DNA of 53,645 nt from an uncultured Bacilli bacterium. Lineage in GTDB: Bacteria; Bacillota_I; Bacilli_A; RF39; UBA660. The stretch covers positions 1 through 53,645 of the forward strand of contig CALVVS010000003.1 in the NCBI GenBank assembly GCA_944363925.1. The letters are read 5' to 3'. Both the position numbers and the translations under genes were made by a program. Under the pieces are notes generated by a model. The model did not search any database, was not told where the DNA came from, and saw only the letters and a program-made list of their open reading frames with translations. Shown in pieces: positions 4,601 through 53,645 of this stretch. The number at the start of each line of letters is the position of its first letter. Position 1 is the stretch's first letter.

Positions 4601-6655
4601 TTATTTTGCGATTATAATTTCAACTGTACTTGGGCAAGAGACAGTTCCGCCTTTAAATCCTCCTACATATGAGCCAGAGGTTAATTCTGCACTAGGATCA
4701 CCAGTAACGACTATATTTATGCCCGGAAAATTGGAATGAAAATAATTTTCAATTAAACTTTTGGTGGTAGTGTAATTTTCACCTCGATTAAAGATTTCAT
4801 TTAAAGGTCTAATGCTTATATTGTAAGATGAACTTTTGCATTGATTTGTGTTAGTTGTTCCACTACTAGAGTTACCACCTGATGAGTTAGAATTATTTCC
4901 TCCAGAAGGTTTTGAAGAAGTTGAAGATGAACTTGAAGAGTTATTTTTATTAGATGATGTTTTATTATTAGTTTTTTTATTTGTAGCGATTGTTATAACT
5001 ATATTATCACCTTTAGAAATTTGAGTTCCAGCAGCAATGTTTTGACTTATTACTTTGCCGGAGGTTATTTTTGTATTATATTCTTCGTTAAATGTACATG
5101 TTATTCCTAAATTATTACACTCGCTTTGGACGGCTGATTTTGTTTTATTTTTAAAATCTGGGACGGTTACAGCAGTACCTTTAGAGACGTATACTATAAT
5201 AGTATCATTTAAGTTTATATTTGTACCTTCTTCTATAGATGTTTTAATTATTTGATCTTTTTCTATATCATTATTAAATTCTTCTTTGATTTCATATTTA
5301 ATACCATTAGTGTCGGCCCAACTTTTGAAATCATTTATATTATTAAATTTTTTCATGGTAAGTGGTCCTTTTGAGAAGACAACATCGACGGTTGTTCCTT
5401 CTTCGATGATATCGCCTTCTTTATAATTGCTTTCAATAACTCTACCTGATTTTATATTATTATCATATCTATCTGAATAATTAATTTGAAGGTTATTTTC
5501 AACCATCCATTTGGTAATTTCAGACATGGTTTTATTTTTTAAATTAGGTACTTTAATTTCTTTACCTTTAGAGATAGTTAGAGTTATTAATTCGTCTGGT
5601 TTAACGGTAGTGCCGGCTTTAGGACTACTACTTATGACGTGTCCTTTTTCTATTTGATTTGAAAATTCGTATTTTAACTGATATAAGATGCCATTTCTTC
5701 CTAGATAAACTGAAGCATTTAAAAGGCTTTCATTTTTTAAATCTTTAAGTTTAATAGGGGATAGAGCTGCTTTATCACCTAAGGAAACTGTAAAGATTAT
5801 TGGCTCATTTCTTTTTATTTGGCCAGTTTTACTTTGACTTATGACGGTATCTTTTTTGATGTTTAGATTTTCCTCAAAGTTTATAGATACATTATTTAGG
5901 AAATTTTCATTTATAAATTTTAAAACGTCATCGATATTCCAACCGGTCATATCGGCTAGGATAATTTCTTTATTATAGTCCGGGCCATTTGAAACGACAA
6001 AATCAATATTGTCGATGTTTTTGGTTAAGGTTTCAGCTTTCTCGCTTTGACTGATAACATTATATTTTTTAGTAGTGTCACTATATTCAAAATCTTGATT
6101 TGTTTTAATATCATTTTTTTCAGTCCAGTTGATAGCTTTGGTTAAATTTTTACTTTCAAAGTTTGGCAAATAATTTTGTTTTGGAAGATTTATTATGTTT
6201 GAGATATATAAGCCATTGAAAGTTAGGGTAAGCATAACAACAAGAGCTGTTATAATGGTTGGAGCAGTTTTATTTTTAAAGAAAGATTTTTTGAAGCTGA
6301 CAAGAAAACATGTCATTAGAATTAATAGCAAAAAGGCATTGATTATTTGATATACTTGATCGATTTGATTTGAAGAATCAATGATTAAATAAAAGAAAAC
6401 AGCAACAGTAATTACATATGTGATTGATAGAATTATATTAGTGCCTTTAGGTTTTGATATTTCGCTTTTATTTTCTTTTGGTTCTTTTTTTCTTGGATTT
6501 TTATAGATGTTTTTTTTATCATCAAAGATGATATTTTTAAGTTCTTTTCTTTTTTCTTCTAATTCTTTTTCTTTTTCTATTTGTTTGTTTTTTAGGTCTT
6601 CTTCAAATTGTTTTCTTTCTGTTCTTGTTTTATATTGTTCATTTTTATTTTCCAT
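4601..6655 (-). CDS. Membrane protein with multiple PASTA repeats (about 6), three N-terminal TM helices and a Ser/Asn-rich linker; no kinase or PBP domain
   Basis: Repeated VPxFxxK....YSxxIxxGxVISQS.....V.....I...VSxG motifs; charged N-terminal coiled coil; hydrophobic segments at about aa 73-150. Confidence 0.85.
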   Translation of the reverse strand: MENKNEQYKTRTERKQFEEDLKNKQIEKEKELEEKRKELKNIIFDDKKNIYKNPRKKEPKENKSEISKPKGTNIILSITYVITVAVFFYLIIDSSNQIDQVYQIINAFLLLILMTCFLVSFKKSFFKNKTAPTIITALVVMLTLTFNGLYISNIINLPKQNYLPNFESKNLTKAINWTEKNDIKTNQDFEYSDTTKKYNVISQSEKAETLTKNIDNIDFVVSNGPDYNKEIILADMTGWNIDDVLKFINENFLNNVSINFEENLNIKKDTVISQSKTGQIKRNEPIIFTVSLGDKAALSPIKLKDLKNESLLNASVYLGRNGILYQLKYEFSNQIEKGHVISSSPKAGTTVKPDELITLTISKGKEIKVPNLKNKTMSEITKWMVENNLQINYSDRYDNNIKSGRVIESNYKEGDIIEEGTTVDVVFSKGPLTMKKFNNINDFKSWADTNGIKYEIKEEFNNDIEKDQIIKTSIEEGTNINLNDTIIVYVSKGTAVTVPDFKNKTKSAVQSECNNLGITCTFNEEYNTKITSGKVISQNIAAGTQISKGDNIVITIATNKKTNNKTSSNKNNSSSSSSTSSKPSGGNNSNSSGGNSSSGTTNTNQCKSSSYNISIRPLNEIFNRGENYTTTKSLIENYFHSNFPGINIVVTGDPSAELTSGSYVGGFKGGTVSCPSTVEIIIAK

Positions 6656-6837
6656 AATATCACCTATAATAATTATACATGAAATACTTATTTATTGGTA
6701 TATTTTAGGGGTTATTTATCTTTTATTTGACATACTCGTTTACAAAGAGAGAAATGTAATTTAATGTTGATTAAAAATAAGATTAATGATAATATAAAAT
6801 AGAATTGTTTGTTAAAATTGGAAGGTTTGGTTAAATT

Positions 6838-7830
6838 ATGAAAAAAGGATTAGTAAGTATTATCGTACCTGTATATAATGCTCAAAAATATTTAGAAAGA
6901 TGTTTAAATAGTCTTTTTAATCAAACATATAAAAATATTGAAATTGTTGCTGTTAATGATGGTTCTACTGATGATAGTAAGAAAATTTTAAATATTTTAG
7001 CAGAAAAAGATAAAAGACTTAAAGTTATTAATCAAAAAAATGCGGGCGTTTCTAGTGCGAGAAATAAAGGCATAAGTGAGGCAAACGGCGAGTTTTTGAT
7101 GTTTGTTGATGCTGATGATTGGATTAGTTTGGAAACAGTCCAGGTTTGTATTAATAATATTGGAAAACATAGTATGGTTAGATTTATGATGCAATATGCG
7201 AACGATGAGGCTTTACTAGATATATATCCGTGTTTTTATAATGACAAAAATATGACTATAAGTGCGAAAAGATTATTTGAAGATATTATTTCTTATAAAG
7301 TTGGCGGACATTGTGTTTATTATTTGTATAGAACTAATATTATTAAGGATAATAAAATTAAATTTTTAATTGATATTAAATATTGTGAAGATCTTTGCTT
7401 TGTTTTAGAGGTTTTGAAAAAGGCAGTTACCATAAAGATTATCCCAAATGTTTTTTACAAGTATTATACTAATTTTCAAAGTGCTACTCAAAATTTTGAA
7501 TCAAAAATACGCAATTTACAATCTTTGCCTAAGCTTAGAGAAAAAGTGTTTGATATTTTTCCTACTAAGTATAGGGATGAATATAAAAAATTATATAATC
7601 AAACATTACTTTCATTACTTTTAGATTATTATTCAAGTTTTTCTACTTTGTCTTATAAGAATTTTAAAGAAAATGTCAAAAAAATTAATAAAGTAATAAA
7701 GCCTATGATAAATGAAATAGGAAAGGATAATTTTAATATTAAATGGCGAATTTTTATTAAGTTGAATTTACTTAATTATATATATTTATTATATTTGTAT
7801 ATGAAAATTTATCAGAAGAAATTTAAATAG
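6838..7830 (+). CDS. GT2 family glycosyltransferase
   Basis: [25 protein letters not shown] and FVDADD motifs. Confidence 0.9.
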   Translation: MKKGLVSIIVPVYNAQKYLERCLNSLFNQTYKNIEIVAVNDGSTDDSKKILNILAEKDKRLKVINQKNAGVSSARNKGISEANGEFLMFVDADDWISLETVQVCINNIGKHSMVRFMMQYANDEALLDIYPCFYNDKNMTISAKRLFEDIISYKVGGHCVYYLYRTNIIKDNKIKFLIDIKYCEDLCFVLEVLKKAVTIKIIPNVFYKYYTNFQSATQNFESKIRNLQSLPKLREKVFDIFPTKYRDEYKKLYNQTLLSLLLDYYSSFSTLSYKNFKENVKKINKVIKPMINEIGKDNFNIKWRIFIKLNLLNYIYLLYLYMKIYQKKFK

Positions 7831-7855: not shown

Positions 7856-8821
7856 ATGATGAAGAAGATTTCTTTAGTTGTTCCTTGTTATAACGAGGAA
7901 GCTGTTATTAAATTGTTTTATGCAGAAATTCAAAAAATTGAGAAAAATTTTACTGATGTAGAATTTGAAATAATTTTTATAAACGATGGTTCTAGGGATA
8001 AAACATTGGAGCTTATGCGAGAATTATCTAAAAACGATGATGTTAGGTATGTTTCATTTTCACGCAATTTTGGTAAGGAAGCGGCTATGTATGCAGGTCT
8101 TGAAGCTTCTTCAGGTGATTATGTAGCTATTATGGATGCGGATTTACAAGATCCGCCAGCTTTACTTAAAGAGATGTATGAAATTTTAGAATCTGGTGAA
8201 TATGATAGTGTGGCTACGAGAAGAGTAACTCGCAAAGGCGAACCGGTAATTAGAAGCTTTTTTGCAAGACTTTATTATAAAATTATTAATAAAATTTCTA
8301 AAACAGAGATTGTCGATGGTGCTAGAGATTTTAGGCTAATGACAAGACAAATGGTTAATGCAGTTTTAGAAGTTAAGGAATATAACAGATTTTCTAAGGG
8401 AATTTTTTCTTGGGTTGGCTTTCGCACTAAATGGCTTGAATATGAGAATATAGAAAGAGCAGCAGGGGAGACTAAGTGGTCTTTTTGGAAGTTATTTTTA
8501 TATTCTTTAGATAGTATTGTGGCTTTTTCGACTGTTCCACTTTCAATTGCATCGGTTATGGGAATACTTTTTTGCTTTGTGGCCTTTTTGATGATTATTT
8601 TTGTAATTGTAAGAACACTTATATATGGTGATCCAACAAGTGGATGGCCGAGTATGGTATGTATTATGTTTTTTATAGGTGGAGTGCAGCTTCTTTGTAT
8701 TGGAATTATTGGTCAATATTTATCTAAGGCTTATTTGGAGGTTAAAAGAAGACCTATTTATATTGTAGCTGAGACAGAAGAAAGTAAAATAAGAGCTAAA
8801 AACGATGATGAAGTTATATAA
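7856..8821 (+). CDS. Undecaprenyl-phosphate glycosyltransferase (GtrB/CsbB/YkoT-like GT2 with two C-terminal TM helices)
   Basis: VVPCYNEE, SFSRNFGKEAA, MDADLQDPP, DFRLM, two TM helices, and EVKRRPIYIV. Confidence 0.9.
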   Translation: MMKKISLVVPCYNEEAVIKLFYAEIQKIEKNFTDVEFEIIFINDGSRDKTLELMRELSKNDDVRYVSFSRNFGKEAAMYAGLEASSGDYVAIMDADLQDPPALLKEMYEILESGEYDSVATRRVTRKGEPVIRSFFARLYYKIINKISKTEIVDGARDFRLMTRQMVNAVLEVKEYNRFSKGIFSWVGFRTKWLEYENIERAAGETKWSFWKLFLYSLDSIVAFSTVPLSIASVMGILFCFVAFLMIIFVIVRTLIYGDPTSGWPSMVCIMFFIGGVQLLCIGIIGQYLSKAYLEVKRRPIYIVAETEESKIRAKNDDEVI

Positions 8822-8948
8822 CTCTTTTTTTATCAAGAAAATTAATTTTCTTGTTGTTATTAAGTATTAAAAATTTGATTTTATTTGGTGATTTTATAAA
8901 TTTTTGTTATACTAATATAAGATATGATTATGAATGGTTGGTGATTTT

Positions 8949-10493
8949 TTGCGCACACTAAATTCTTTAAAAAATGTTATAGGAAATTTTGCAAATAATA
9001 TACTTTTGAATTTGCTTAGATTTGTATCACGAATTATTTTTATTAGAGTTTTATCTGATGTTTATTTGGGTGTTAATGGGCTTCTTTCTAATGTTTTAGG
9101 CTTACTTGCTTTAAGTGAACTTGGTATTTCAACAGCGATTAGTTACAGTTTATATCGTCCACTTTCAGATAATAACGTTAATAAAATAAAAGCTTTAATG
9201 AATTTTTATCAAAAGGCTTATAGAGTAATTGCAATAGTTATTTTATTGCTTGGACTTATTTTATTACCTTTTTTACCTTGGTTTATTAAAGATACTAATG
9301 GTATTGAAAATTTAAATATTATTTATTTGATTTTTTTAGCTAACATGGTTATTGGTTATTTATTTTCTTATAAAAGAACACTTATTACAGCTGATCAACA
9401 AAATTATAAAATTATGCCAATTGTAATGTTTTATAGTTTTTTAACAACAGTACTTCAAATATCAGTTTTATTGATTTTTAAAAATTATATTATTTATTTA
9501 TTAATGCAATCGCTTTGCACGGTGCTTGAAAATTTAACGGTTAATCATTATATTAATAAACAATATCCTTATTTAAAGGATAACCTTAAGAATAATAAAC
9601 TAGATAAGAGTGAGTTTAAAGAAATTTCGACTAATGTTAAAGCTTTGATGTTCCATAAAGCTGGTAGTTATGTACTTTCGGCTTCTGATAATATTGTTAT
9701 TTCAAAGTTTATAGGTATTGTTATGGTTGGTGTTTATTCAAATTATGTTTTAATTGTTAATATGATTAATTCATTTATAACAGTTCTTATTAATAATGTG
9801 ACAGCTTCTTTTGGAAATTTAATTGCGAAAGATGACGCTAAGAAAAGTATGAGTGTTTTTGATGAAATGAATTTAATTTGTTTTATTTTATATGGTGGGG
9901 CTACTGTTTGTTTTATAAATTTATTTAATCCGTTTATTGATTTAGTATTTGGCGAGAAGTTTGTACTTCCAATGGTTGTTGTTTTTTTAATTTCTTTTAA
10001 TAACTTTTTAGTTGGTATGAATTTAGCGCCTATAACGATTCAAAGTGCGGCTGGTCTTTATAATAATGATAGGTTTGTACCACTTATTCAATCGTTTGTA
10101 AATATAGTTATTAGTGTTGTTCTAGCTTTAAAGATTGGCATTGCAGGAGTTCTTTTAGGTACACTTATAAGCCAATTTATTCCATTTATTGTTAAACCAA
10201 TAATAGCTTATAAGTATGTCTTTAAAGAAAAAGTTAGTGTTTATTTTAAAGAAGAGATGAAACAGTTTGTGTTATTATTTTTAGCTGTTAGTATTAGTTA
10301 TGGTTTGGTTTTATTAATAGGTGATCATCAGATTATTTTAGATTTAGCTATTAGACTTATTTTGAGCTTTTTGATTTCTTTTGTCGTTTTTTATTTAGGA
10401 TATAGAAAATCATTAGCTTTTGTAAATATTAAGAATCGTATTATGTTTATTATAGATAGAATTAGAAATAGAAAGGCTATAAATAATGGGTAA
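8949..10493 (+). CDS. Wzx-type polysaccharide flippase (TTG start inferred after a GGTGA RBS; the ORF track starts at 8934)
   Basis: About 12-14 TM helices; LSELGI..AI.YSLYRP and DNIVISKFIG....G.YSNY are typical of the MOP/Wzx family; located in a polysaccharide locus. Confidence 0.85.
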   Translation: MRTLNSLKNVIGNFANNILLNLLRFVSRIIFIRVLSDVYLGVNGLLSNVLGLLALSELGISTAISYSLYRPLSDNNVNKIKALMNFYQKAYRVIAIVILLLGLILLPFLPWFIKDTNGIENLNIIYLIFLANMVIGYLFSYKRTLITADQQNYKIMPIVMFYSFLTTVLQISVLLIFKNYIIYLLMQSLCTVLENLTVNHYINKQYPYLKDNLKNNKLDKSEFKEISTNVKALMFHKAGSYVLSASDNIVISKFIGIVMVGVYSNYVLIVNMINSFITVLINNVTASFGNLIAKDDAKKSMSVFDEMNLICFILYGGATVCFINLFNPFIDLVFGEKFVLPMVVVFLISFNNFLVGMNLAPITIQSAAGLYNNDRFVPLIQSFVNIVISVVLALKIGIAGVLLGTLISQFIPFIVKPIIAYKYVFKEKVSVYFKEEMKQFVLLFLAVSISYGLVLLIGDHQIILDLAIRLILSFLISFVVFYLGYRKSLAFVNIKNRIMFIIDRIRNRKAINNG

Positions 10494-43830: not shown

Positions 43831-46155
43831 CTACTGTTCAAATTGCGAATTATATAGGCTAGCATAGAAGCCATTTTGTTTCATTAATTCATTGTGACTA
43901 CCTTGCTCGATTATGTTACCTTCTTTCATGACTAAGATTAAATCGGCATTTTTAATGGTTGAAAGTCTATGAGCAATAATAAATGAGGTTTTACCTTCGG
44001 TTAGTTTATCCATAGCGCTTTGGACTAATTCTTCGGTTCTGGTATCGACGTTTGAAGTTGCTTCGTCGAGTATTAGAAATGGTGTTTCTTGAATCATACC
44101 TCTAGCAATTGTTAGTAATTGTCTTTGGCCGGCTGAGACGCTTTCGTTATCTGAAAGGATGGTATCATAGCCTTTAGAGAGGGTTCTAATGAAGTGGTCT
44201 AAGCCTACTTCTTTACAGACTTCTCTTACTTTGTCATCGGAAATATTTTTTTGATTATAGATGATGTTTTCTTTAATACTTCCTTCAAATAGCCAAGTAT
44301 CTTGCAGAACCATTGTAAATAGTTCGTGGATGTTTTCTCTAGTTAATTCTTTAGTAGATACGCCATCTATTTTGATATCACCCGAGTTTATGTCATAAAA
44401 TTTCATAAGAAGGTTGACCATTGTTGTTTTTCCAGCACCGGTTGGACCGACAATGGCAATTTTTTGACCGGGTTTAGCATGAGCGGTAAAGTCTTTGATG
44501 GTTGGATTTTCATTGCCGTCATATTTAAAGACAACGTTTTCGAAATCGATATATCCTTTAACGTTTTCACGGTCTAGATGTTTTGTTATATCTTTTTGAC
44601 TACTCATTTCTGGCTCGTCGATGAAATCGAACACTCTTTCACTAGCAGCAGCGGTTGACTGTAATGAGGTCATGGCTTGGGCTATTTGTGATAGAGGGTT
44701 TGTGAATAGTCTAACATATGTCATAAAGGCGACGATGACACCAAAGGAAATTTGCCCGTTCATGGTTAGCATGGCTCCAACAATGCAGACAGCGACATAA
44801 CCAAAGTTTCCAATGAAGGCCATTATTGGTTGCATTAAACCTGATAAGAATTGGCTCTTTTTATTACTTTGACAAACTTTTTCGTTATATTCATCGAATT
44901 TTTGACTAGCTTCGGTTTTGCCATTATAGGTTTTCACGACGTTTAGTCCAGAGTAAATTTCTTCGATATGACCGTTTAAGTTACCTAATTCGGTTTGTCT
45001 TTGGATAAAATATTTTTGAGATTTTCTTAGGATAGCAGCCATACCGATAAAGCCAATTAAACTTGATACAATGGCGGTGATAGCTAAAATCCAGTTGGTT
45101 ACGAACATCATGATAATACTACCTAAGAACAAGGTAATACTACTAACTAATGAGGCTAGTGATTGGTTCATTGACTGAGCAATCATATCGACATCGTTAG
45201 TAATTCTAGATAAGATGTCCCCTACTTGATGTTTATCAAAATATTTAAGGGGTAATTTATTTATTTTGATAGATATACGGCTACGCAAGTTATTGGCAAA
45301 TTTATTAGCCACGTCAGTCATACAAATTGATTGGATGTAGGTGAATAAGGCGCTTGCTAAATACATGCAGACAAGAAGTAAGGTTATGCTTTTTATTTTG
45401 CTTATGTTCATGACTGGTTCAATTACTTCTCTGACAGATTTTGGTAAAGTATCTAAAGTTTTGTAGATATTTTCTTCGCCTTCGTTTTTATCTAAGGTAC
45501 TTAATGTTTTGACAAATTTATATTGGTCAGATGATGACACTTTAATTTTATCAATGGTTACTTCCTTAAAAAGAATTTCCTGAAGGGTTTGAGATAGATT
45601 TAAGTTTTTATTTTCTTTATCCATTTTTAATAATGTGATTTTATCTTTTGAGGTAACGGTTTTGCCTTCATAGGTTGTTTCTGTAAATATTTTTTCTAAA
45701 ATACTATCTGGAAGCTCGGCTAGAGTTTTAAAACTTTCTTCGCTGTTTTTTTCAATATTGCTTAAAATTTCTCCAAGTTTTTGTTTATCTTGATTAGAGA
45801 TATTTTTATCTTGCATGATGTTTTGGATATTTTCTTCAGAAAAGTTAGGTTTTAGTATTTCCGGAAGTAATTCTTTTAATTTATCTTCACTTAAGTTTTC
45901 AGTGGCTTTTTTAGTTAATATTTCCATATTATTTTGGTTTATAACAAGGCCAGCTGATATTTCGTCGGTTAGGTCTGATAGTCTATTAGGAGCTAAAATG
46001 GAAAGAACTGAGCCTAATATAGCTAAGGTGAAAGCTATAACGATTAAGGTTTTATAGGTGTTTAATTCACTGAATAGTCTTTTGATAGCGCCTTTAAAGT
46101 CTTTAGCTTTTTCGTAGTTTTGACCACCGGCTGGTCCATGATTTGGTCTAGGCAT
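43831..46155 (-). CDS. Heterodimeric ABC exporter subunit (consensus-site half) with a large insertion in the first extracellular loop
   Basis: GPTGAGKTT, SAGQRQ, LILDEATS and IAHRLSTI motifs; about 190 extra residues between TM1 and TM2. Confidence 0.92.
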   Translation of the reverse strand: MPRPNHGPAGGQNYEKAKDFKGAIKRLFSELNTYKTLIVIAFTLAILGSVLSILAPNRLSDLTDEISAGLVINQNNMEILTKKATENLSEDKLKELLPEILKPNFSEENIQNIMQDKNISNQDKQKLGEILSNIEKNSEESFKTLAELPDSILEKIFTETTYEGKTVTSKDKITLLKMDKENKNLNLSQTLQEILFKEVTIDKIKVSSSDQYKFVKTLSTLDKNEGEENIYKTLDTLPKSVREVIEPVMNISKIKSITLLLVCMYLASALFTYIQSICMTDVANKFANNLRSRISIKINKLPLKYFDKHQVGDILSRITNDVDMIAQSMNQSLASLVSSITLFLGSIIMMFVTNWILAITAIVSSLIGFIGMAAILRKSQKYFIQRQTELGNLNGHIEEIYSGLNVVKTYNGKTEASQKFDEYNEKVCQSNKKSQFLSGLMQPIMAFIGNFGYVAVCIVGAMLTMNGQISFGVIVAFMTYVRLFTNPLSQIAQAMTSLQSTAAASERVFDFIDEPEMSSQKDITKHLDRENVKGYIDFENVVFKYDGNENPTIKDFTAHAKPGQKIAIVGPTGAGKTTMVNLLMKFYDINSGDIKIDGVSTKELTRENIHELFTMVLQDTWLFEGSIKENIIYNQKNISDDKVREVCKEVGLDHFIRTLSKGYDTILSDNESVSAGQRQLLTIARGMIQETPFLILDEATSNVDTRTEELVQSAMDKLTEGKTSFIIAHRLSTIKNADLILVMKEGNIIEQGSHNELMKQNGFYASLYNSQFEQ

Positions 46156-47908
46156 TTTCTAATTCCTCCTTTGATAGCTGTGATAAAGCGATTTGTTTAT
46201 AGACATCACAGGTTTTAAGTAGTTCTTTATGGGTTCCCATACCGACGCATTTACCACTATCTAGGACAACGATTTTATCGGCGTTCATGATGGTACCGAT
46301 ACGCTGAGCGACGATTAGACTAGTGGCATTTTTAGTGTAGTTTTTTAATTCTTTTCTAAGAACAGCGTCTGTTTTATAATCTAAAGCTGAAAATGAGTCG
46401 TCAAAAATATAGATTTCAGGGTCTCTAGCGATGGCTCTAGCGATAGCTAGTCTTTGTTTTTGACCACCTGAGACATTGGTACCACCATGCGCAATATGAG
46501 TTTCATATTTATCGTCCATTTTTTCAATGAATTCGCTAGCTTGAGCGACTTTAGCTGCTTCTTCTATTTTTGTTTGGCTCTTTTCACCTTTACCATTATC
46601 ACCGTAGCTAATATTATAGTTAACTGTGCCGGCGAACATGACGGCTTTTTGTGGTACATAACCTAATTTGTTGTTTAAAGCTTCAAATTTATAGTCTTTG
46701 ACATTGACACCATCAATTAAGACTTCGCCTTCAGTGGCATCATAAAATCTTGGAACTAAGTTTATAAGGGTTGATTTACCACTACCAGTTGAACCGATAA
46801 AGGCAATGGTTTCACCTTGATTTACTTTAAAGGAAATGTTTTCTAAAACATATTCATCAGCGTCTGGATACTTAAATGAGACGTTTTTGAATTCGACGGT
46901 TCCTTTTTCTTCGGTTTTGCCATCGAAAGTGCCTGGTATGATTTTTTGTTTGGTATCTAATACCTCATTAATTCTCTTGGCTGAAACATCGGCTCTTGGA
47001 ACTATCATGAAAATCATAGCAAGCATTAAAAAGGACATTATTACTTGCATGGCGTAAGAACTGAAGACAATCATATTACCAAATAAAGTTATTTTATCAG
47101 CTAGGAGAGAGTTTTGAATTAAGCCAGCACCGATAAAATAGATAGATAAGGTTAGACCATACATGATTAAGTACATTACAGGCATCATGATAGCAAACTT
47201 TTTTTGGTTGAATAATTGCAGGTTGGTTAAGTCATTATTGGTTTTATCGAATTTATCCTCTTGGTATTTTTCGGCATTGAAGGCTCTAACAACTCTAATA
47301 CCAGTTAAGTTTTCTCTAGCAAGTCCGTTTATTTTATCGATTAGTTTTTGAACGAGTTTAAATCTTGGGATGACGATTATCATTAAAGTAGTGATAACGC
47401 CTAGAAGGATTAGGACAGCGACGCCGGTAACGGCACTCCACTGCCAACCTTTATTTAATATTTTAGTAATGGCCCATACAGCGGTGATTGGGGCTTTGAC
47501 TAGTAGTTGCAAGCCCATAGCGATTAACATTTCTATTTGAGTAACGTCGTTGGTGGTTCTGGTGATGAGGCTACTAGTTTGAAATTCTTTGATTTCTTCG
47601 GTATCGAGATTTTGCACTTTATCGAAGATTTTTTTTCTGGTATTTTTAGAAAATTCAGAAGCGATGTAAGCGGCAAAGTATCCCGCACCGGCAGCAAATA
47701 TTAAACTACCTAAGGCACATAATATCATATAGCCACCGTTTAATATGATATCGGACATTTTACTGCCTTCTGTTTGGACAAGGACGGTTATTTCTGACAT
47801 ATAATCAGGAATTTTTAATTCTAGCCATACTTGACCAACGATTAAAATTACACAAAATAAGGCATATAATAATTCTCTTTTAGTAAGGTTTTTTATTAAT
47901 TTTAACAT
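46148..47908 (-). CDS. Heterodimeric ABC exporter subunit (degenerate Walker B / switch half)
   Basis: GSTGSGKST, SGGQKQR, FDDSFSALD (D replacing the catalytic E) and VAQR (Q replacing H), as in TM287-type subunits. Confidence 0.93.
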   Translation of the reverse strand: MLKLIKNLTKRELLYALFCVILIVGQVWLELKIPDYMSEITVLVQTEGSKMSDIILNGGYMILCALGSLIFAAGAGYFAAYIASEFSKNTRKKIFDKVQNLDTEEIKEFQTSSLITRTTNDVTQIEMLIAMGLQLLVKAPITAVWAITKILNKGWQWSAVTGVAVLILLGVITTLMIIVIPRFKLVQKLIDKINGLARENLTGIRVVRAFNAEKYQEDKFDKTNNDLTNLQLFNQKKFAIMMPVMYLIMYGLTLSIYFIGAGLIQNSLLADKITLFGNMIVFSSYAMQVIMSFLMLAMIFMIVPRADVSAKRINEVLDTKQKIIPGTFDGKTEEKGTVEFKNVSFKYPDADEYVLENISFKVNQGETIAFIGSTGSGKSTLINLVPRFYDATEGEVLIDGVNVKDYKFEALNNKLGYVPQKAVMFAGTVNYNISYGDNGKGEKSQTKIEEAAKVAQASEFIEKMDDKYETHIAHGGTNVSGGQKQRLAIARAIARDPEIYIFDDSFSALDYKTDAVLRKELKNYTKNATSLIVAQRIGTIMNADKIVVLDSGKCVGMGTHKELLKTCDVYKQIALSQLSKEELENA

Positions 47909-47912
47909 ATGT

Positions 47913-48350
47913 TCATCCTTTCATTTTTAGATTTTCTTTCATTTTACTGATAGTTTTGAAAAAAAGTTCTAGTTCTTCTTTTTTGATGCCATTTGTGATA
48001 ACTTTTTCGGCTTCATTTAATTTGTCTTTGACAATTTGAAAGTTATTTTTAGCATCTTCACTGATGATTATTTCTTTTTTTCTGGTATCAGTTTGGTCTT
48101 TAATTCTAAAAATTAGGTTATTTTTTTCCATTGTTTTTAGAATTTCGGAGAGGGTTGCGCGTCTTAGATTTAAAGCGTTTCCTATATCTTTTTGATATAT
48201 TGGTTTTTTATTATTGGAAATTATAAAGTGCAGGATTTGCATTTGCGCTGGTGTTGGCATTTTTAGTTTGCTCTCATCAGCTATACAAATATATCTTATA
48301 ATTTCGTGGTTTAAATCTTTTATTAGATAGGTTACTCTTTTATTTTCCAT
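47913..48350 (-). CDS. MarR-family transcriptional regulator
   Basis: T..Q..IL, QKDI...L.L.RAT.S..L..ME...LI.R....D.R motif; first gene of the ABC operon. Confidence 0.9.
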   Translation of the reverse strand: MENKRVTYLIKDLNHEIIRYICIADESKLKMPTPAQMQILHFIISNNKKPIYQKDIGNALNLRRATLSEILKTMEKNNLIFRIKDQTDTRKKEIIISEDAKNNFQIVKDKLNEAEKVITNGIKKEELELFFKTISKMKENLKMKG

Positions 48351-48372
48351 TATTCACCTTCTTTATAACCTG

Positions 48373-48408
48373 CTAAAACATTTTAGTATAATTTTAAAAT
48401 ATTGTCAA
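48373..48408 (-). promoter_or_regulatory. marR-ABC promoter TTGACA-N17-TAAAAT with the palindrome CTAAAA-N2-TTTTAG over the -10 element (candidate MarR operator)
   Basis: tgtcaa at 48403-48408, atttta at 48380-48385, inverted repeat at 48373-48386. Confidence 0.65.
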
Positions 48409-48452
48409 TACCCTAACAAAAATATTTTGAAATCACATAATTTCCCATAATT

Positions 48453-48475
48453 AAAAGATAAGGGGAACTTATCTT
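48453..48475 (-). terminator. Intrinsic terminator after the deacetylase gene
   Basis: AAGATAAG/CTTATCTT stem with a minus-strand T-run. Confidence 0.6.
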
Positions 48476-49331
48476 AATTATTTATATGATGATGTATTTG
48501 AGGGGTGTTTTTGGTTATTTTGGCAAAGGTATAACCATTTTCTTTAGCAAATTTTATGATATCTGGCAAGGCTTCGACGGTCGTCTTTTTGTCTATTAAA
48601 TCATGCATTAAAACGATATTTGTTCCATTATGTATTTTATGCACGACATTATTATATATGCTTTCTTTTGTCTGATGGCCGCTAGCATCATTACTATCGA
48701 TATTCCAGTCGAAATAATAGTAATCATTTTCGGTTAATTTATTTGTTATTCTAGTTACAATGCCTGAGTTATATTTTTTGGATATGGTGTTTGATGAACC
48801 ACCGGGCAATCTTACAATACGTGATTTATGACCGGTGATGTTATAAACTTGATTTCTTATTTGATTTAGGTCGTTAAAGTAGTTTTCATCTTGAGAATAG
48901 ATATAACTATAATTATGAGTTGAGGTGTGAAGGGCTACGGTATGGTTTTCTTCTTGCATCCTTTTAACTAGATTTGAATATTTATCTATTTGTCTTGAGG
49001 TTAGGAAAAAGGTGGCGGGGATATTTTCTTTTTTTAAAATATCTAATATACTTTCAGTTAAAGCACTTGGACCATCGTCGAAGGTTAGATAAATGGTTTT
49101 AGCTGAGACGACTGATGGGTTTATGTCTTTTACTTTTATTTTAGCTGGTTTATAGTAGTTTATTTTTTGATTAAAGGTTACTTTTGGTTTTATTTGTTTA
49201 AATGTTTGCTTTGGGGTATTTATTTTAATTATATAGTTTAAAATTATTAAAATATTTAAAGTAATACATATGATGATTATTATAGGAATTTTATATTTTA
49301 AAATAATTTGTTTAATGTTTTCACGTGACAT
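48474..49331 (-). CDS. Membrane-anchored CE4 polysaccharide (peptidoglycan) deacetylase
   Basis: N-terminal TM; LTFDDGP, HTSTH, RLPGG, DWN.DS.D and LMHD motifs. Confidence 0.92.
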   Translation of the reverse strand: MSRENIKQIILKYKIPIIIIICITLNILIILNYIIKINTPKQTFKQIKPKVTFNQKINYYKPAKIKVKDINPSVVSAKTIYLTFDDGPSALTESILDILKKENIPATFFLTSRQIDKYSNLVKRMQEENHTVALHTSTHNYSYIYSQDENYFNDLNQIRNQVYNITGHKSRIVRLPGGSSNTISKKYNSGIVTRITNKLTENDYYYFDWNIDSNDASGHQTKESIYNNVVHKIHNGTNIVLMHDLIDKKTTVEALPDIIKFAKENGYTFAKITKNTPQIHHHINN

Positions 49332-49349
49332 ACTACCTCACCTATTTAC

Positions 49350-49378
49350 ATTATACCTTAAAAAATAAAGAAAAACAA
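49350..49378 (-). promoter_or_regulatory. Possible promoter TTGTTT-N17-TATAAT for the deacetylase gene
   Basis: attata at 49350-49355 and aaacaa at 49373-49378. Confidence 0.45.
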
Positions 49379-49383
49379 AGGAA

Positions 49384-50634
49384 TTAGTATTTTCCTTTTG
49401 TTTTTTTGCATATATTATTTCTTTCTATTATTAAATTTATTATTTCATTGATGCTTTCATCATCTTTGGTTTTGACTGTTTTATTTAATTTTTCTAATAT
49501 TGTTTTTTCACTTTCTTTTGTAAATTCAGATGATACGGGATCTGAAAATTTAAGGGCTTCAATTAAGTCTTGATTATTTATCTTTTTAGCTATGTTTAAT
49601 GCTTCTTCAATAAAGTTTTGAATATTATTTACTTTTTTATCGTATTCTTTTAGTCTATTTTTGACGAAATATAAAGGTAAGAATAAGATAAAATATATGA
49701 TAGTTGTAACGATAGTTATGGTTAAAAGATTATTTATATTTAAGTAAGCATACATGTTTATAGCAAATAGATAAATAATGGATAAGATATATAAGAAAGT
49801 TATATATACTGTTTTATCTTGATTTTTCTTTTTGTTTAGAATTAATATAATCAGCAAGGTTATAATTAGGGCCACTAATTCTATTATGATGGCAAGATAA
49901 AAATTATTATTGATATTTTCATCTATTATTTGATTTATGGTTATAACAGATGAAGGAATATATATTTCACTTGGCATTTTATCTAAATTCATAGAAATAG
50001 TGGTTACAGGAAGATTTTCAATGGTTTCTGGTATTATAATTTGTTTTTCACTACCTTTATAACCAGTTACTTCTATTTGATTATTTTTGATATTATAAGT
50101 GAAGTTATCGTTACTTTTAAGTTCGTTTAGTTCACTATCTGATATGTTTTGATAATTAAAATTGTTTTTTTCAGCATAGTTTTGAACATTTTGATTATTA
50201 TGTGAAGTTAGTTTGATAGAGCTATTATTGATTGATTTTATATTTTCATCTATTATTTGATTTATGGTTATAACAGATGAAGGAATATATATTTCGCTTG
50301 GCGCTTTATCTAAACTCATAGAAATAGTGGTTACAGGAAGATTTTCAATAGTTTCTGGTATTATAATTTGTTTTTCACTACCTTTATAACCAGTTACTTC
50401 TATTTGATTATTTTTGATATTATAAGTGAAGTTATCGTTACTTTTAAGTTCGTTTAGTTCACTATCTGATATGTTTTGATAATTAAAATCATTTTTTTCG
50501 GCATAGTTTTGAGCATTTTGATTATTATGTGAGGTTAGTTTAATGGAATTGTTATTAAACGGTTTATTTAGATATGTTAGAGTTAAGAAAATGGCACTTA
50601 TTAATATTATAATAACTGGAATGATTTTTTTCAT
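49384..50634 (-). CDS. Membrane protein: N-terminal anchor, two tandem BspA/LRR_5-cap-like extracellular units, three TM helices, cytoplasmic tail with FSDPVS and ERN..CK motifs
   Basis: AQNYAEKN.F.Y and FTY......EVTGYKG....IIIP.TI.NLPVT.I resemble the C-cap and N-cap of BspA-type LRR domains; hydrophobicity pattern. Confidence 0.7.
   Translation of the reverse strand: MKKIIPVIIILISAIFLTLTYLNKPFNNNSIKLTSHNNQNAQNYAEKNDFNYQNISDSELNELKSNDNFTYNIKNNQIEVTGYKGSEKQIIIPETIENLPVTTISMSLDKAPSEIYIPSSVITINQIIDENIKSINNSSIKLTSHNNQNVQNYAEKNNFNYQNISDSELNELKSNDNFTYNIKNNQIEVTGYKGSEKQIIIPETIENLPVTTISMNLDKMPSEIYIPSSVITINQIIDENINNNFYLAIIIELVALIITLLIILILNKKKNQDKTVYITFLYILSIIYLFAINMYAYLNINNLLTITIVTTIIYFILFLPLYFVKNRLKEYDKKVNNIQNFIEEALNIAKKINNQDLIEALKFSDPVSSEFTKESEKTILEKLNKTVKTKDDESINEIINLIIERNNICKKTKGKY
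49912..50556 (-). repeat. Intragenic tandem duplication with a 327-bp period (109 aa)
   Basis: Copies at 50556-50230 and 50229-49912; about 15 mismatches in 318 nt by manual comparison, giving 5 amino-acid differences. Confidence 0.95.
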
Positions 50635-50635
50635 A

Positions 50636-51784
50636 TTATTTTATTCTCCTTCCGCATTTAGGACAAAATATGTTATCAGGTTCTAATTTATGATGACAGT
50701 TTGGACAGGTTAAACTATTTTCTAATGAGGTTCCACATTTTTTACAAAAGCTATGATCTTTAGAGTTTGCAGTTCCACATTTTGGACATGTTTTAGTATT
50801 ATTATCAATATTAGCGATAACACCTTGAACATTATTTCCAACTTTATCGCCTAAAGTGGTCCCTATTCCGCTCATGATACCAAGTCCTACTCCAACGTTA
50901 GCAAATTCACCTACTCCTTCGTTAGCGGCCATTTTTTCTAAAGCATTATAAGATCTTTCTTCTTGATATGAGTAACCTTCTTGCGCACGCTTTTTGGCTT
51001 CGGCTTCAGAGGCGATGACTTTTTGTTTAGCTTTGGTTTCTTCATCTATGATATTTACTTTTTGTCTTATTTCAGCTTCAGCTACTGAGACGGTTTGTTT
51101 GAAGAATAGTTCTTTAAATTCTAAGTATTGTTTATCATCTTCTGGTTTTAATATGGTGGTTACAAAGAATTTATTTAGTTTAATACCATAGTCTGCAAAA
51201 TCTTTATTTAAAAGTTTTTGAAGGGTATCACTAAATTCATTTAAGTATTTATCAACTTCAAAGATACATATTTTATTTTCGGTTATGATGTTTGCCATAT
51301 AACTTTTAACTTTTGTTAATATACATGATGTGAAGAAGTTATCAATTGTTTCATTATCGATTGTTTTTTTGATGCCAACTAGTTTTATTAATAATTTTCT
51401 TGCGTCTTCGACAATGAAACGCATTTCACCGCAAGCTCCAATTTGAATTGGGAAATTATATTTAGGGTCTAGAAATTCAATTTTACTACTGGTCCCCCAT
51501 TTACTATTTTTTTCGGTTTTATCGATAAAATATACTTCACACTGAAAGGGACTTCTAAAACCGGTTGGAATATTTAAAAATGTTTTTAGAAGTGGAATAT
51601 TATTGGTGGTTAAGGTATATTTACCCGGTCCAAATAAATCTAAAGCTTTACCATTTGAGAAAAATAATGCTTCTTGTGATTCATGGACTATTAACTGTGA
51701 CATTGTGTTAAAATTTGTTTTAGGATATTTCCATACTAGATTATCATCAGCTTTTACTTTTTTTATTACTTCAAATATTGCCAT
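50636..51784 (-). CDS. SPFH/band-7 domain protein (YdjI / 'virion core protein' type) with a C-terminal double zinc ribbon
   Basis: SQLIVHESQEA.F, FGPG.YTL.T.NIP, SPF.CEVYF, KWGT; Gly-rich GVGLGIM segment; four CxxC pairs. Confidence 0.88.
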   Translation of the reverse strand: MAIFEVIKKVKADDNLVWKYPKTNFNTMSQLIVHESQEALFFSNGKALDLFGPGKYTLTTNNIPLLKTFLNIPTGFRSPFQCEVYFIDKTEKNSKWGTSSKIEFLDPKYNFPIQIGACGEMRFIVEDARKLLIKLVGIKKTIDNETIDNFFTSCILTKVKSYMANIITENKICIFEVDKYLNEFSDTLQKLLNKDFADYGIKLNKFFVTTILKPEDDKQYLEFKELFFKQTVSVAEAEIRQKVNIIDEETKAKQKVIASEAEAKKRAQEGYSYQEERSYNALEKMAANEGVGEFANVGVGLGIMSGIGTTLGDKVGNNVQGVIANIDNNTKTCPKCGTANSKDHSFCKKCGTSLENSLTCPNCHHKLEPDNIFCPKCGRRIK

Positions 51785-51793
51785 AATTTACCT

Positions 51794-53645
51794 CTACTTT
51801 CTTTTTGGAATATATTTTGAATATGTATATTCTCCATTTTGTGATTTATATCCAGAGTATACATAACCTGTTTTGTTTGGTATATATTCTATTTTATACC
51901 AAAGGCCATCTTTATCTGGACAGTTATCTATATTTTTACATGACACTATTTCTAGTACATTATAATAATTTCCTGAAAAGATATAATCTTGTTTTTGGCT
52001 ACTGCTATCTGGATTTCTTCTAACATTTATATAATCGGTTGTTACTAATATTTGATTTTCATTTGTGTTTTGCGCACCTATATTTTTCGGTTTCATGAAT
52101 ACGATGAATATTAAGGTGATTGATATTACTAGGGCAAGTATATAAGCAATTATTGGTGTTTTAGTATGTGGGTTATCTTCAAAATTTTTCTTTGTTTCTT
52201 TTTGTAATTGCTTAATTTCTTCAGCGTACTGTTTTTTGATAAGGGTTGTTTCGGCTTTTAATTGCCATTTAGAGTTCATTAATATTAGTATGATAGTGAA
52301 AATGTAAATACCTAGTATAGATGAGTTAAAAGTTAAGTTATATTCTTTATATATAAAGACTGAAAATAGTAAGAATATAAATAGATTTATAATATATAGA
52401 TATTTAGATATTCTTCGGCTTTTTCGGCTACTAAAACCTAGTATATAAGCTATAAAATATATTATAGATGTCGTGCCAAAGATTATCACGAGCTGGGCGG
52501 ATAATAGTTTTATATATAAAGTTGGATTGTTTGAAACAAAAACAGAATTACTAATTAATATAATATAGAAAGTGGCTACTAAAGCGGAAATTAAAAATGT
52601 GATTATACTATAACTTTTGGGACATTTTTCTTTGTATATTTTAACTTCTACGCCTCTTTCTTCTTCCTCTTGCTTTTTTCTTTTTAACTCTTCTTCTTGC
52701 TTTAACATTTCTTTGAATTTGCTGAATAATTCATCAGATAGTTCTTCATTTTTTGGTGCTTTTTTGATTATTTTAGTGATGCCTCTTATTAAGTCTTGAA
52801 TAGCCCCTATTTTATTTAGATCTTGCCCTTGAAGAAGAATAAATTCATCAGGTAAGTCAGCGGCTGTCATGCCATAAAAACAAGGAATTAAGGTTTTGTT
52901 TCTGTCTTTTTTCATGATGTCTAAGTAACGGCTCCACTCATTTTTAACCCAAACTGAGTTCATGTTTTTTTGAGATGTTCCAATTACCAGCATTACTTTT
53001 GAGGATTTTAGTGCTGAATAGATATATGGTTCATATTCTGAGCCTATTTTATCTTCTAGAGTAATTCTAGAGAAGAATACTTTATAGTTTAATTTAGTTA
53101 ATTCATTATATATTTCTTGGGCTATTACGGAATCTTTGGTTCGCCCACCATTTTTTTCATCGGTTTCTTTATAACAAATGAATATATCGTATGGGCTTTC
53201 TTTTTCGGATATTTCTAATATTTCTTTTTGAATTCTATTAATTTCTTTAGCTTCTTTTTCATAGAGTTCTAATGTTTTGCCATAAGCATTTTTTATGATA
53301 TGTTTATACTCTTGAGTTGTTAAAATTGATTCTTTATTAGCTTTATGACAAGTGGGAATTTTTTTATTTGTTTTAGGGTCATCGACATATTCGACGCCGT
53401 ATTTACAAAGTAAGATACCCCACTGCGCTTCTAACTGGGTGTTATCAAGATTTAGTATAGATTCATATAGGCCCTGCGCTTTATCAAATTCATTGGATTG
53501 TCTTAGTTCATTTGCTCTATTATAAAGATTGATTATTTTTTCATTATCAGAGTTTGGCAAGGTCATAGTACTTTTACAGTATAGACATTTACCGGTATTA
53601 GTGCCTTTAATTGGCTCAATATCGCCGCCACACATTTTACATTTA
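51794..53645 (-). CDS. Zn-ribbon / TPR / TIR / 5-TM / SH3b protein (5'-partial; frame open to the window edge)
   Basis: KCKMCGG..CLYC; TPR-like LYNRANELR..EFDKA..LYE; TIR motifs YDIFICYK, VFFSR, LVIG and WVKNEW; five hydrophobic helices; INVRRNP....WYKI....GYV SH3b-like C-terminus. Confidence 0.85.
   Translation of the reverse strand, partial: KCKMCGGDIEPIKGTNTGKCLYCKSTMTLPNSDNEKIINLYNRANELRQSNEFDKAQGLYESILNLDNTQLEAQWGILLCKYGVEYVDDPKTNKKIPTCHKANKESILTTQEYKHIIKNAYGKTLELYEKEAKEINRIQKEILEISEKESPYDIFICYKETDEKNGGRTKDSVIAQEIYNELTKLNYKVFFSRITLEDKIGSEYEPYIYSALKSSKVMLVIGTSQKNMNSVWVKNEWSRYLDIMKKDRNKTLIPCFYGMTAADLPDEFILLQGQDLNKIGAIQDLIRGITKIIKKAPKNEELSDELFSKFKEMLKQEEELKRKKQEEEERGVEVKIYKEKCPKSYSIITFLISALVATFYIILISNSVFVSNNPTLYIKLLSAQLVIIFGTTSIIYFIAYILGFSSRKSRRISKYLYIINLFIFLLFSVFIYKEYNLTFNSSILGIYIFTIILILMNSKWQLKAETTLIKKQYAEEIKQLQKETKKNFEDNPHTKTPIIAYILALVISITLIFIVFMKPKNIGAQNTNENQILVTTDYINVRRNPDSSSQKQDYIFSGNYYNVLEIVSCKNIDNCPDKDGLWYKIEYIPNKTGYVYSGYKSQNGEYTYSKYIPKRK

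Follow-up and report, generated by a model that had tools for sequence, protein, structure and literature searches.

The contig CALVVS010000003.1 of an uncultured Bacilli bacterium (assembly GCA_944363925.1), which was analyzed over its whole length of 53,645 nucleotides (nt) and is referred to below as the window, carries at one end three adjacent genes for a TIR-domain membrane protein (p1), an SPFH protein (p2) and a second membrane protein (p3). Herein, we report that these genes probably constitute a conserved, as yet unnamed module of Firmicutes with three parts and a role in membrane signalling or defence. They are best explained as one undescribed membrane module because they recur together in many gut Firmicutes, and we are highly confident that the module acts as one functional unit. 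All three genes lie on the minus strand. Gene 1 (51794..53644; 616 amino acids, aa) is open at its 5′ end, where the window stops; it is followed by gene 2 (50636..51784; 382 aa) after 9 nt (51785-51793) and by gene 3 (49384..50634; 416 aa) after a further gap of 1 nt (position 50635). These open reading frame (ORF) coordinates agree with the gene order and gap lengths given in the original prediction, an earlier interpretation of the same stretch of DNA.

In our reading, the first part of the module would be a Band_7_1 SPFH protein that lacks a transmembrane (TM) helix and ends in Zn ribbons (p2). The second would be a dedicated partner with four TM helices (4-TM), encoded directly downstream of the SPFH gene and bearing a conserved cytoplasmic tail (p3); in this lineage its first outer loop appears to have been enlarged by units resembling leucine-rich-repeat (LRR) caps. 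The third would be a set of one to five tandem "client" genes, whose products share a strongly conserved head (Zn ribbon, TPR-like helices and TIR domain) and differ in their tails. The tail of p1 is predicted to have five TM helices and an outward SH3_3 domain, and most other clients have either a single TM helix followed by about 300 residues outside the membrane or a tail that is soluble.

Linkage and distribution of the three genes

Loci encoding relatives of the p1 head were collected from one genome per species. At least 671 stretches were found, and the best 80 yielded 71 loci from Bacilli, Oscillospiraceae, Lachnospiraceae, Acutalibacteraceae, Erysipelotrichaceae, and others. Profile hidden Markov models (HMMs) detected a p2-type SPFH gene in 50 of these 71 loci, a gene for an approximately 230-aa 4-TM protein in 46, and both in 45. 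When the count was restricted to the 24 loci whose flanks extend 5 kb or more in each direction, the SPFH gene was present in 20, the 4-TM gene in 18, and both in 18. Each of the other neighbour families occurred in at most 16 of the 71 loci, and the next most frequent ones were generic (ABC-type ATPases, XRE regulators, and serine recombinases). The two partner genes were also closely spaced, as the 4-TM gene lay within 60 nt downstream for 41 of the 46 SPFH genes that had a same-strand 4-TM gene in the locus.

Presence and absence of the genes followed the same pattern. Among 61 relatives of the source organism, 37 of which belong to its genus, the TIR head was present in seven genomes; the 4-TM gene was present in these seven and in one more (G012), and a close SPFH orthologue (E<1e-50) was found in the same eight. 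For the class Clostridia, 250 genomes, each at least 90% complete, were scored. Of these, 20 contained the head and 27 the 4-TM gene, with an overlap of 18 (2.2 expected; Fisher p = 7e-19, which is overstated because related genomes are not independent); in 16 of these 18, head and 4-TM gene lay no more than 6 kb apart. Band_7_1 genes overall occurred in 125 of the 250 genomes, and 30 of the 32 4-TM matches had a Band_7_1 match within 3 kb. These counts indicate a nested structure, in which SPFH/4-TM pairs form a subset of Band_7_1 genes, and pairs with TIR heads form a subset of the pairs. Co-occurrence in other genomes had been set beforehand as a test of the original prediction, and the 45 of 71 loci with all three genes and the 18 Clostridia genomes bear it out. 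An explanation by chance adjacency of three unrelated genes is contradicted by these counts, since linkage and shared presence or absence recur in two classes, and we give it next to no credence.

In a maximum-likelihood tree of 37 SPFH proteins (midpoint root, long outgroup branches), the 34 with a 4-TM partner were separated from three generic Band_7_1 proteins (support 92/86), and 27 TIR-linked proteins together with two TIR-less ones formed a clade (98/94).

Within the genus, the module was present in 7 of 37 genomes and was located between the gene of a 285-aa deacetylase and that of a 463-469-aa deacetylase-domain membrane protein. In the window, the polysaccharide deacetylase gene (48474..49331; 285 aa; Pfam 2e-30) lies 52 nt beyond gene 3. 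In two genomes, G012 and G031, the two flanking genes were directly adjacent, representing an empty site; the module thus behaves as an island. G012 carries a TIR-less variant with SPFH, 4-TM, and Zn-ribbon genes elsewhere in its genome, beside recombinase genes. The number of TIR gene copies in the genus varied from one to three (three in G006, two in G018, and one in G009).

The window is an entire contig (C3) of an assembly of 1.44 Mb in 111 contigs, rated 76% complete. Contig C5 of this assembly opens within a second TIR-head paralogue (G000:C5:1-1120), 60% identical to p1 over 365 aa. The paralogue is followed by genes for a protein of 204 aa, a deacetylase-domain protein of 463 aa, and QueH-like and phosphoglycerate-mutase-like proteins, an order that matches the upstream synteny of relatives such as G018. 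As C5 starts in a head paralogue and then shows this synteny, it probably follows C3, and the TIR array probably extends upstream of the window; the tandem paralogues there had escaped the original prediction, which did propose to look upstream for further operon members. The assembly was probably split at the repeated heads. The contig end has cost p1 about three N-terminal codons, because the C5 paralogue and the orthologues of relatives start three residues earlier.

Architecture of the three proteins

The Pfam search of p1 returned TIR_2 (1.1e-10; aa 154-268), SH3_3 (1.7e-6; aa 539-599), and a weak TPR_2 match (0.036). Hydropathy and the positive-inside rule placed the N-terminus and the first 345 residues in the cytoplasm, followed by five TM helices (aa 346-516; 52097..52609, minus strand), which were also helices in the structural model described below. 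The SH3_3 domain (51848..52030, minus strand) was predicted to lie outside the membrane and was modelled with a predicted local distance difference test (pLDDT) value above 90. Gene 1 had been described as encoding a TIR-domain polytopic membrane protein, and both the TIR_2 match and the five helices uphold this; the outward SH3_3 domain was absent from that description.

The cytoplasmic head has two segments. The first (aa 1-150; 53195..53644, minus strand) combines a Zn ribbon (CxxC...CxxC) with helices in a TPR-like repeat, for which aa 41-85 gave TPR-type matches, and with a beta-hairpin that carries a conserved IPTCH motif. Across 48 family representatives, C8, C23, and C26 were invariant, and C5, C102, and H103 nearly so. 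The second (aa 151-300; 52745..53194, minus strand) is the TIR domain, assigned by the TIR_2 match, Foldseek, and the family alignment. An AlphaFold2 model was made from a 48-row alignment for P0001, a full-length protein 99% identical to p1. Its pLDDT exceeded 90 over residues 1-300, in which a Zn ribbon of three strands precedes three helices of TPR-like type, a beta-hairpin, a long helix, and finally the TIR domain. When the head model was compared with the PDB by Foldseek, the first matches were the TIR domains of SARM1, RPS4, AbTir, and L7 (E 2e-4 to 1e-3). The Pfam match, the confident model, and the Foldseek matches therefore agree on membership of the TIR fold, with NAD+-cleaving TIR domains as fold neighbours. 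A search of solved-structure sequences with the head profile returned solely TPR proteins and spurious WD40-repeat matches.

The Glu of the WVKNEW motif was invariant in all 48 representatives. In phmmer alignments with weak E-values (0.23-0.9), it stood opposite the WCxxE Glu of the plant proteins SNC1 (WCLNEL) and L6/L7 (WCLMEL). The Glu of the WxxxE motif after beta-C is the residue that we take to be catalytic in TIR domains. Judging from this residue and the fold, we find it fairly probable that the TIR domain of p1 is catalytic.

The head defines a large family. With p1 aa 1-330 as query against 1.84 billion cluster representatives, 6636 clusters passed E<=1e-3, of which 3874 also passed E<=1e-30. 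The 150 best head relatives ranged from 432 to 2363 aa in total length, and all but one of them (149) matched from within their first 12 residues. In the alignment of the 48 representatives, the cysteines of the Zn ribbon, numerous positions of the helical module, and the TIR core as a whole were invariant. The two halves of the head seldom occurred apart: six weak matches to the Zn ribbon or the first TPR were found, against 119 proteins with both halves, and the element common to the head and those partial matches is at most the Zn ribbon.

The tails, however, were far less conserved than the heads. Among 67 pairs of paralogues within the same locus, the median identity was 71% for heads and 32% for tails, and the head was the more similar part in 66 pairs. 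Domains following the head in the 48 representatives were TPR (18), SH3_3 (4), and DUF6273 (2), with LRR_5, MORN, RCC1, and TM2 found once each. By our own hydropathy threshold, a single TM helix and then about 300 further residues followed 46 of the 110 complete heads in the collected loci; 22 heads had four or five helices after them, as in p1, and 39 had none. Head genes were single in 45 of the 71 loci and occurred as tandem arrays of two in 15, three in 7, four in 2, and five in 2. That the extracellular or otherwise variable parts are swapped among relatives, as had been proposed, is thus reflected in both the identity values and the differing tail domains.

Such tails could also be read in another way, namely that they are adhesins or wall-binding modules whose display or turnover is handled by an SPFH/4-TM assembly and quality-control platform, with a non-catalytic TIR domain. 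The surface-protein-type domains of the tails (LRR, SH3, RCC1, and DUF6273 among others), their fast divergence, and the resemblance of the p3 loop to BspA-type surface LRR proteins would suit this explanation, and SPFH proteins have been linked to chaperone-like or protease-control roles (see also PMC11237479). Yet thousands of clusters share an invariant Glu and TIR core, 39 of 110 members have no TM helix, and a large cytoplasmic head would be needless for display. We therefore consider variable-surface-protein display distinctly unlikely.

Gene 2 had been assigned to an SPFH protein with a double Zn ribbon, and Pfam gave the same answer: Band_7_1 (4.1e-40; aa 17-221; 51122-51736, minus strand) and DZR (3.1e-11), the double Zn ribbon spanning aa 333-378 (50651-50788, minus strand), together with two Zn_Ribbon_1 stretches. 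No TM helix was indicated by hydropathy. Between the SPFH part and the Zn ribbons lies a Gly-rich hydrophobic stretch (aa ~285-320; ~50825-50930; consensus GVGLGxMxGVGG in 28 family members), which may be a membrane-dipping element. The SPFH profile found zinc-finger proteins alone among solved-structure sequences.

No Pfam family above cut-off, NCBIfam family, or PADLOC family was found for p3. Its predicted topology (hydropathy and positive-inside rule) has four TM helices, a 224-aa outer loop (aa 23-246; 49897-50568, minus strand), and a 95-aa tail inside the cell. An HMM built on 30 short members of the ~230-aa 4-TM family matched aa 237-413 (E 2.8e-13; 49396-49926, minus strand), a region that includes the tail motif SDPVS...RN.ICK..K. 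Owing to this match, p3 can be regarded as a 4-TM family member with an enlarged first outer loop; judged by sequence, it is a lineage-specific, loop-expanded form of a much wider family, a point that goes beyond the original prediction. The 4-TM proteins share the C-terminal tail RYSDPxS...RNxxCKxxK, in which S, D, P, R, N, and K are nearly invariant, and the cytoplasmic FSDPVS..ERN..CK tail recognized earlier in the polytopic gene 3 product accordingly reappears in its relatives. No Pfam or NCBIfam model covers the family, and in the ESM Atlas it occurred only among "hypothetical protein" clusters. The family also had 4-TM matches inside frames of 432-518 aa (G140:C22:30481-31146, G075:C74:8874-9539, G074:C29:2569-3231, G286:C20:42206-42871, and G096:C150:598-1260), indicating that longer partner forms exist in Clostridia too, as p3 does in Bacilli.

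The loop of p3 is marked by a 327-bp tandem duplication (49913-50541, minus strand; 1.9 copies with 96% matches) that doubles an LRR-cap-like unit. Close relatives include both the 416-aa form and a 307-aa form with one loop unit. The loop had been described as BspA/LRR-cap units. Consistent with this, PF13306 was present in 7 of the 77 homologues, and the best fold matches of the p3 model (pLDDT 88.3) were the BspA-type LRR proteins 6mlx (E 5.3e-4, low TM-score), 4gt6, and 4oju; Pfam LRR_5, by contrast, did not match p3 itself. The BspA/LRR-cap reading is thus partly supported, and the loop would hold units resembling a cap plus first repeat, not a full LRR solenoid. The tail was modelled as a helical hairpin of roughly 90 aa.

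Comparison with known TIR and SPFH systems

The module lies outside Thoeris, CBASS, Pycsar, the PspA-YdjGHI operon, and the SPFH-NfeD pairs. PADLOC returned for p1 a weak PDC-S66 match only (7.2e-7) and no Ths model, and nothing for p2 or p3. The NCBIfam model of Thoeris ThcB4 scored 20.1 bits against p1, with a cut-off of 220. In the full-text literature, no published gene set of TIR, SPFH, and 4-TM proteins was found, although supplementary tables (e.g., PMC11237479) could still list such neighbourhoods, and the module architecture is not described in the accessible part of the TIR survey PMC7075850. The earlier statement that the set matches no named system thus stands after the PADLOC, NCBIfam, Pfam, and literature searches. 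The module is best filed as a combination of a TIR system with a YdjI-type SPFH platform.

With Thoeris, CBASS, Pycsar, and SPARTA, the module shares the fold of NAD+-cleaving TIR domains, the conserved Glu, a patchy and island-like distribution, and diversified sensor parts. It differs from Thoeris in that no adjacent ThsA-type effector (SIR2/SLOG or TM-Macro) was found by PADLOC or among the conserved neighbours of the 71 loci, from CBASS and Pycsar in that none of the three genes encodes a cyclase, and from SPARTA in that the cluster has no Argonaute. Unlike in all of these TIR immune systems, the partners are an SPFH scaffold and a 4-TM protein, and the TIR protein itself is membrane-bound with an outward domain.

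Some head genes had defence genes beside them. PADLOC was applied to 128 sampled of 465 neighbours within 6 kb; these are counts without a baseline, and no enrichment is claimed. The clearest cases were a CBASS-type oligonucleotide cyclase (9e-166), the only one among the 128, with a PDC-S01 protein (3e-90), adjoining the TIR-head gene of an Erysipelotrichaceae metagenome-assembled genome (MAG; L034:2-3091); a type II restriction enzyme (L066); a CapP-like gene (L089); and a 222-aa protein with a PycTM/2TM effector match (1e-25; L077:1021-1686), whose gene lies immediately upstream of a head gene; this Oscillospiraceae MAG has four head genes around its SPFH/4-TM pair. The remaining PADLOC matches were set aside as generic, comprising six mad3 matches (ABC-type ATPases), a Ser/Thr kinase, a RecD-like helicase, a dGTPase, and Tn7-like TniQ/TnsB.

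The pairing of TIR enzymes with TM effectors is familiar from type II Thoeris, Pycsar, and the TM effectors of CBASS, and SPFH proteins regulate membrane proteins. It could accordingly be supposed that the TIR heads make a nucleotide signal, that the 4-TM protein is a membrane-disrupting effector reading this signal by its tail, and that the SPFH protein restrains the effector; the near-invariant tail residues and the PycTM-like gene of L077 would be expected under such a Thoeris-like scheme. However, the tail has the shape of a helical hairpin in the model and matches no nucleotide-binding family, the PADLOC TM-effector models do not match p3, and the SPFH/4-TM pair is found without a head in Clostridia as well as in G012. 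We regard this scheme as highly unlikely.

The closest parallel on the SPFH side is the pspA-ydjGHI operon of B. subtilis, in which YdjI combines a Band-7 SPFH domain with a Zn ribbon, YdjG carries two Zn ribbons and a TM segment, and YdjH has a TPM domain. Passages of two phage-shock-protein papers (10.1101/2021.02.15.431232; PMC11237479) describe YdjI as Band-7 plus Zn ribbon, occurring with YdjG and YdjH, and mention no TIR domain; "Tir" there refers to the CesT/Tir chaperone. YdjI has been proposed as an adapter between PspA and membrane-bound YdjG/YdjH (10.1101/2021.02.15.431232). The likeness to the module is threefold: a TM-less Band_7_1 protein with C-terminal Zn ribbon(s), which is the domain composition that defines YdjI and is also that of p2; membrane proteins and N-terminal Zn-ribbon proteins beside it; and a proposed adapter role of the SPFH protein, which would link its membrane partners to a client in the cytoplasm. 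The Zn ribbon of the head itself weakly matched the two Zn ribbons of a YdjG-like protein.

Downstream of the pair, six TIR-less SPFH/4-TM loci and G012 encode one to three small Zn-ribbon proteins or larger ones, which makes an N-terminal Zn ribbon the common feature of the genes accompanying the pair. A further Band_7_1 gene, of the generic kind, lies elsewhere in the window's own genome (381 aa, Zn ribbon included; G000:C4:18187-21566), followed by genes for proteins of 177, 285, and 264 aa, each with a Zn-ribbon-like CxxC...CxxC pattern and membrane proteins among them; this set is YdjI-like and separate from the TIR module. The parallel originally drawn with YdjI-type SPFH genes beside Zn-ribbon proteins is therefore apt, as seen in the TIR-less loci, G012, and the C4 set. 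On the other hand, the module differs from pspA-ydjGHI in several respects. Pfam found no TPM domain in p1 or p3; YdjG has two Zn ribbons and an NTF2-like domain, whereas in p1 a single Zn ribbon precedes TPR-like helices and TIR; the 4-TM partner is unannotated and has its own tail motif; the TIR clients occur in tandem, tail-variable arrays; and the module SPFH proteins occupy a branch apart from the three generic Band_7_1 proteins.

This parallel gives weight to a rival reading in which the locus is a YdjI-type envelope-stress or membrane-organisation module with no immune role, the SPFH/4-TM platform arranges clients bearing Zn-ribbon tags at the membrane, and the TIR head is a metabolic or signalling device or an oligomerisation domain in wall or membrane homeostasis. 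It would account for the YdjI-like composition of p2, the second Band_7_1 set in the genome, the other Zn-ribbon clients of TIR-less platforms, the wall-binding-type SH3_3 domain at the end of p1, and the position of the island between two polysaccharide-deacetylase genes, and it sits well with the highly conserved head, the chromosomal location, and the small number of defence genes nearby. Nevertheless, PspA (PF04012) was found neither in the source genome (76% complete) nor among the conserved neighbours of the 71 loci; the patchy islands, seen in 7 of the 37 genomes of the genus and in 18-27 of the 250 from Clostridia, and the hypervariable-tail arrays fit housekeeping poorly, and the Glu typical of catalytic TIRs is invariant. 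On balance, we judge this reading unlikely, though it deserves serious attention.

SPFH-NfeD pairs such as YqiK/YqiJ and YuaG/YuaF resemble the module in that an SPFH gene is translationally coupled to that of a small polytopic membrane partner. They differ because no NfeD match was obtained in p3 or four 4-TM representatives, because the module SPFH protein has no TM helix of its own, and because a third, TIR-bearing component is present. A further comparison can be made with the Toll-like and IL-1 receptors of flotillin/SPFH-rich membrane domains, which likewise form a multigene family with a variable outer domain (some with LRRs) and a cytoplasmic TIR domain; the module family is genetically tied to a scaffold of the flotillin superfamily. 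Toll-like receptors have an N-terminal LRR ectodomain, one TM helix, and a C-terminal TIR domain, whereas the order is reversed in the module, with TIR N-terminal and inside and the ectodomain C-terminal. The module proteins also have an extra Zn-ribbon/TPR-like part, an LRR tail is found in 1 of 48 representatives, and 46 of 110 members are single-pass. The likeness is an analogy and does not imply family membership, no homology being shown beyond the TIR fold, and the output of the module is likely enzymatic, not adaptor recruitment as in Toll-like receptors.

A proposed mechanism and its significance

TIR NADases need oligomerisation, and SPFH proteins build membrane-attached oligomeric scaffolds. 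In the mechanism we favour, the SPFH protein would oligomerise beneath the membrane, anchored by its 4-TM partner, the neighbour being the likely anchor because the SPFH protein lacks a TM helix. Zn-ribbon heads would serve as docking elements that bring the TIR clients onto this platform. An envelope cue at the variable tails, such as phage contact or wall damage, would alter head packing; for p1, the SH3_3 domain would read the cell wall. Assembly of TIR domains with one another would then switch on NAD+ cleavage or production of a nucleotide signal, leading to growth arrest or death of the attacked cell, or to an envelope-stress response. A platform that concentrates or releases the heads is the simplest way in which a TM-less SPFH protein, docking Zn ribbons, and TIR domains in need of self-association could work together. 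A complex prediction that combined full-length p2 with aa 1-335 of P0001 as the head and aa 325-416 of p3 as the tail gave a score of 0.00 and a mark of 0.32 with controls not folded, and speaks neither for nor against binding.

The strength of this proposal varies among its parts. That an SPFH/4-TM platform docks Zn-ribbon-tagged TIR receptors and controls their NAD+ cleavage, in defence or envelope surveillance, appears to us evenly balanced between being right and wrong. A conflict or defence role is given a probability a little below even; the patchy, island-like presence, the tandem arrays with fast-diverging tails, the conserved Glu, and the occasional defence neighbours speak for it. 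A bolder form of the proposal, in which reversed-order arrays resembling Toll-like receptors use their Zn-ribbon heads as address tags to sit on a flotillin-like SPFH cage held by the 4-TM protein, and recognition of phage or wall lesions leads to TIR clustering and NAD+ cleavage, is doubtful. It would amount to a raft-organised, TIR-based innate immune receptor system in bacteria, with the SPFH/4-TM platform as a general docking site for Zn-ribbon-tagged clients.

Several observations weigh against this proposal. The head is conserved unusually strongly for a defence gene (45-67% identity across classes). The neighbourhoods do not look like defence islands, since only about 5 of the 128 sampled neighbours could be credited as defence genes, and the conserved neighbours of the 71 loci include no dedicated receptor or effector that would respond to a signal made by the TIR domain. 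Viral carriage was rare: among 152 pattern matches on 2.9 million viral contigs, 3 encode a head relative, and no module match was obtained at 1e-20 in 72,556 plasmid records and 50,697 phage records. An extracellular cue cannot be general, since 39 of 110 heads have no TM helix by the hydropathy threshold. The alignment of the WVKNEW Glu to plant TIRs depends on the weak E-values given above. In addition, in 4 of the 24 full-flank loci the head gene lacks both an SPFH and a 4-TM neighbour, and 9 of the 27 Clostridia genomes with an SPFH/4-TM pair have no head, so that TIR is one optional payload of the platform.

If the proposal of a TIR-bearing platform is true, a widespread module would join the bacterial TIR systems, being present in about 7% of the 250 sampled Clostridia genomes and with its head in thousands of clusters. 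It would be the first TIR system tied to an SPFH/flotillin-type scaffold, and in it the TIR protein would double as a membrane receptor, bearing a variable outer domain. Bacterial Band_7_1 SPFH proteins would gain a testable job, that of docking clients with Zn-ribbon tags, and the unannotated 4-TM family would gain a function. The parallel with animal TIR receptors in flotillin-rich membrane domains would bear on the origin of TIR-based immunity. If the module is an envelope-stress device instead, it would link NAD+ metabolism to membrane surveillance in gut anaerobes.

Carriage by mobile elements was considered and rejected, with three loci on viral contigs and none in the plasmid and phage records. 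One of the three viral-collection contigs with a head has the full set (L092:5412-10457), encoding the SPFH protein at 5412-6809, the 4-TM protein at 6791-7522, and the TIR head at 7992-10457. Short contigs of all three genes were present in RNA-labelled gut and feces runs from three studies, a record of presence only that hints at expression of all three genes; contigs bridging both gene junctions came from run X1, which is probably DNA. A promoter and terminator scan of 48300-53645 yielded 46 promoter-like sites (34.0 +/- 6.4 in shuffled sequence) and 2 terminator-like sites (1.9 in shuffles), and thus no usable operon boundary in this AT-rich DNA. Downstream of the deacetylase gene, the window encodes a MarR-type regulator and two ABC-transporter proteins (43831-48350), labels based on sequence appearance and on ABC-ATPase-type PADLOC matches in orthologous ORFs; this gene order was the same in all examined relatives of the genus, with or without the TIR module.

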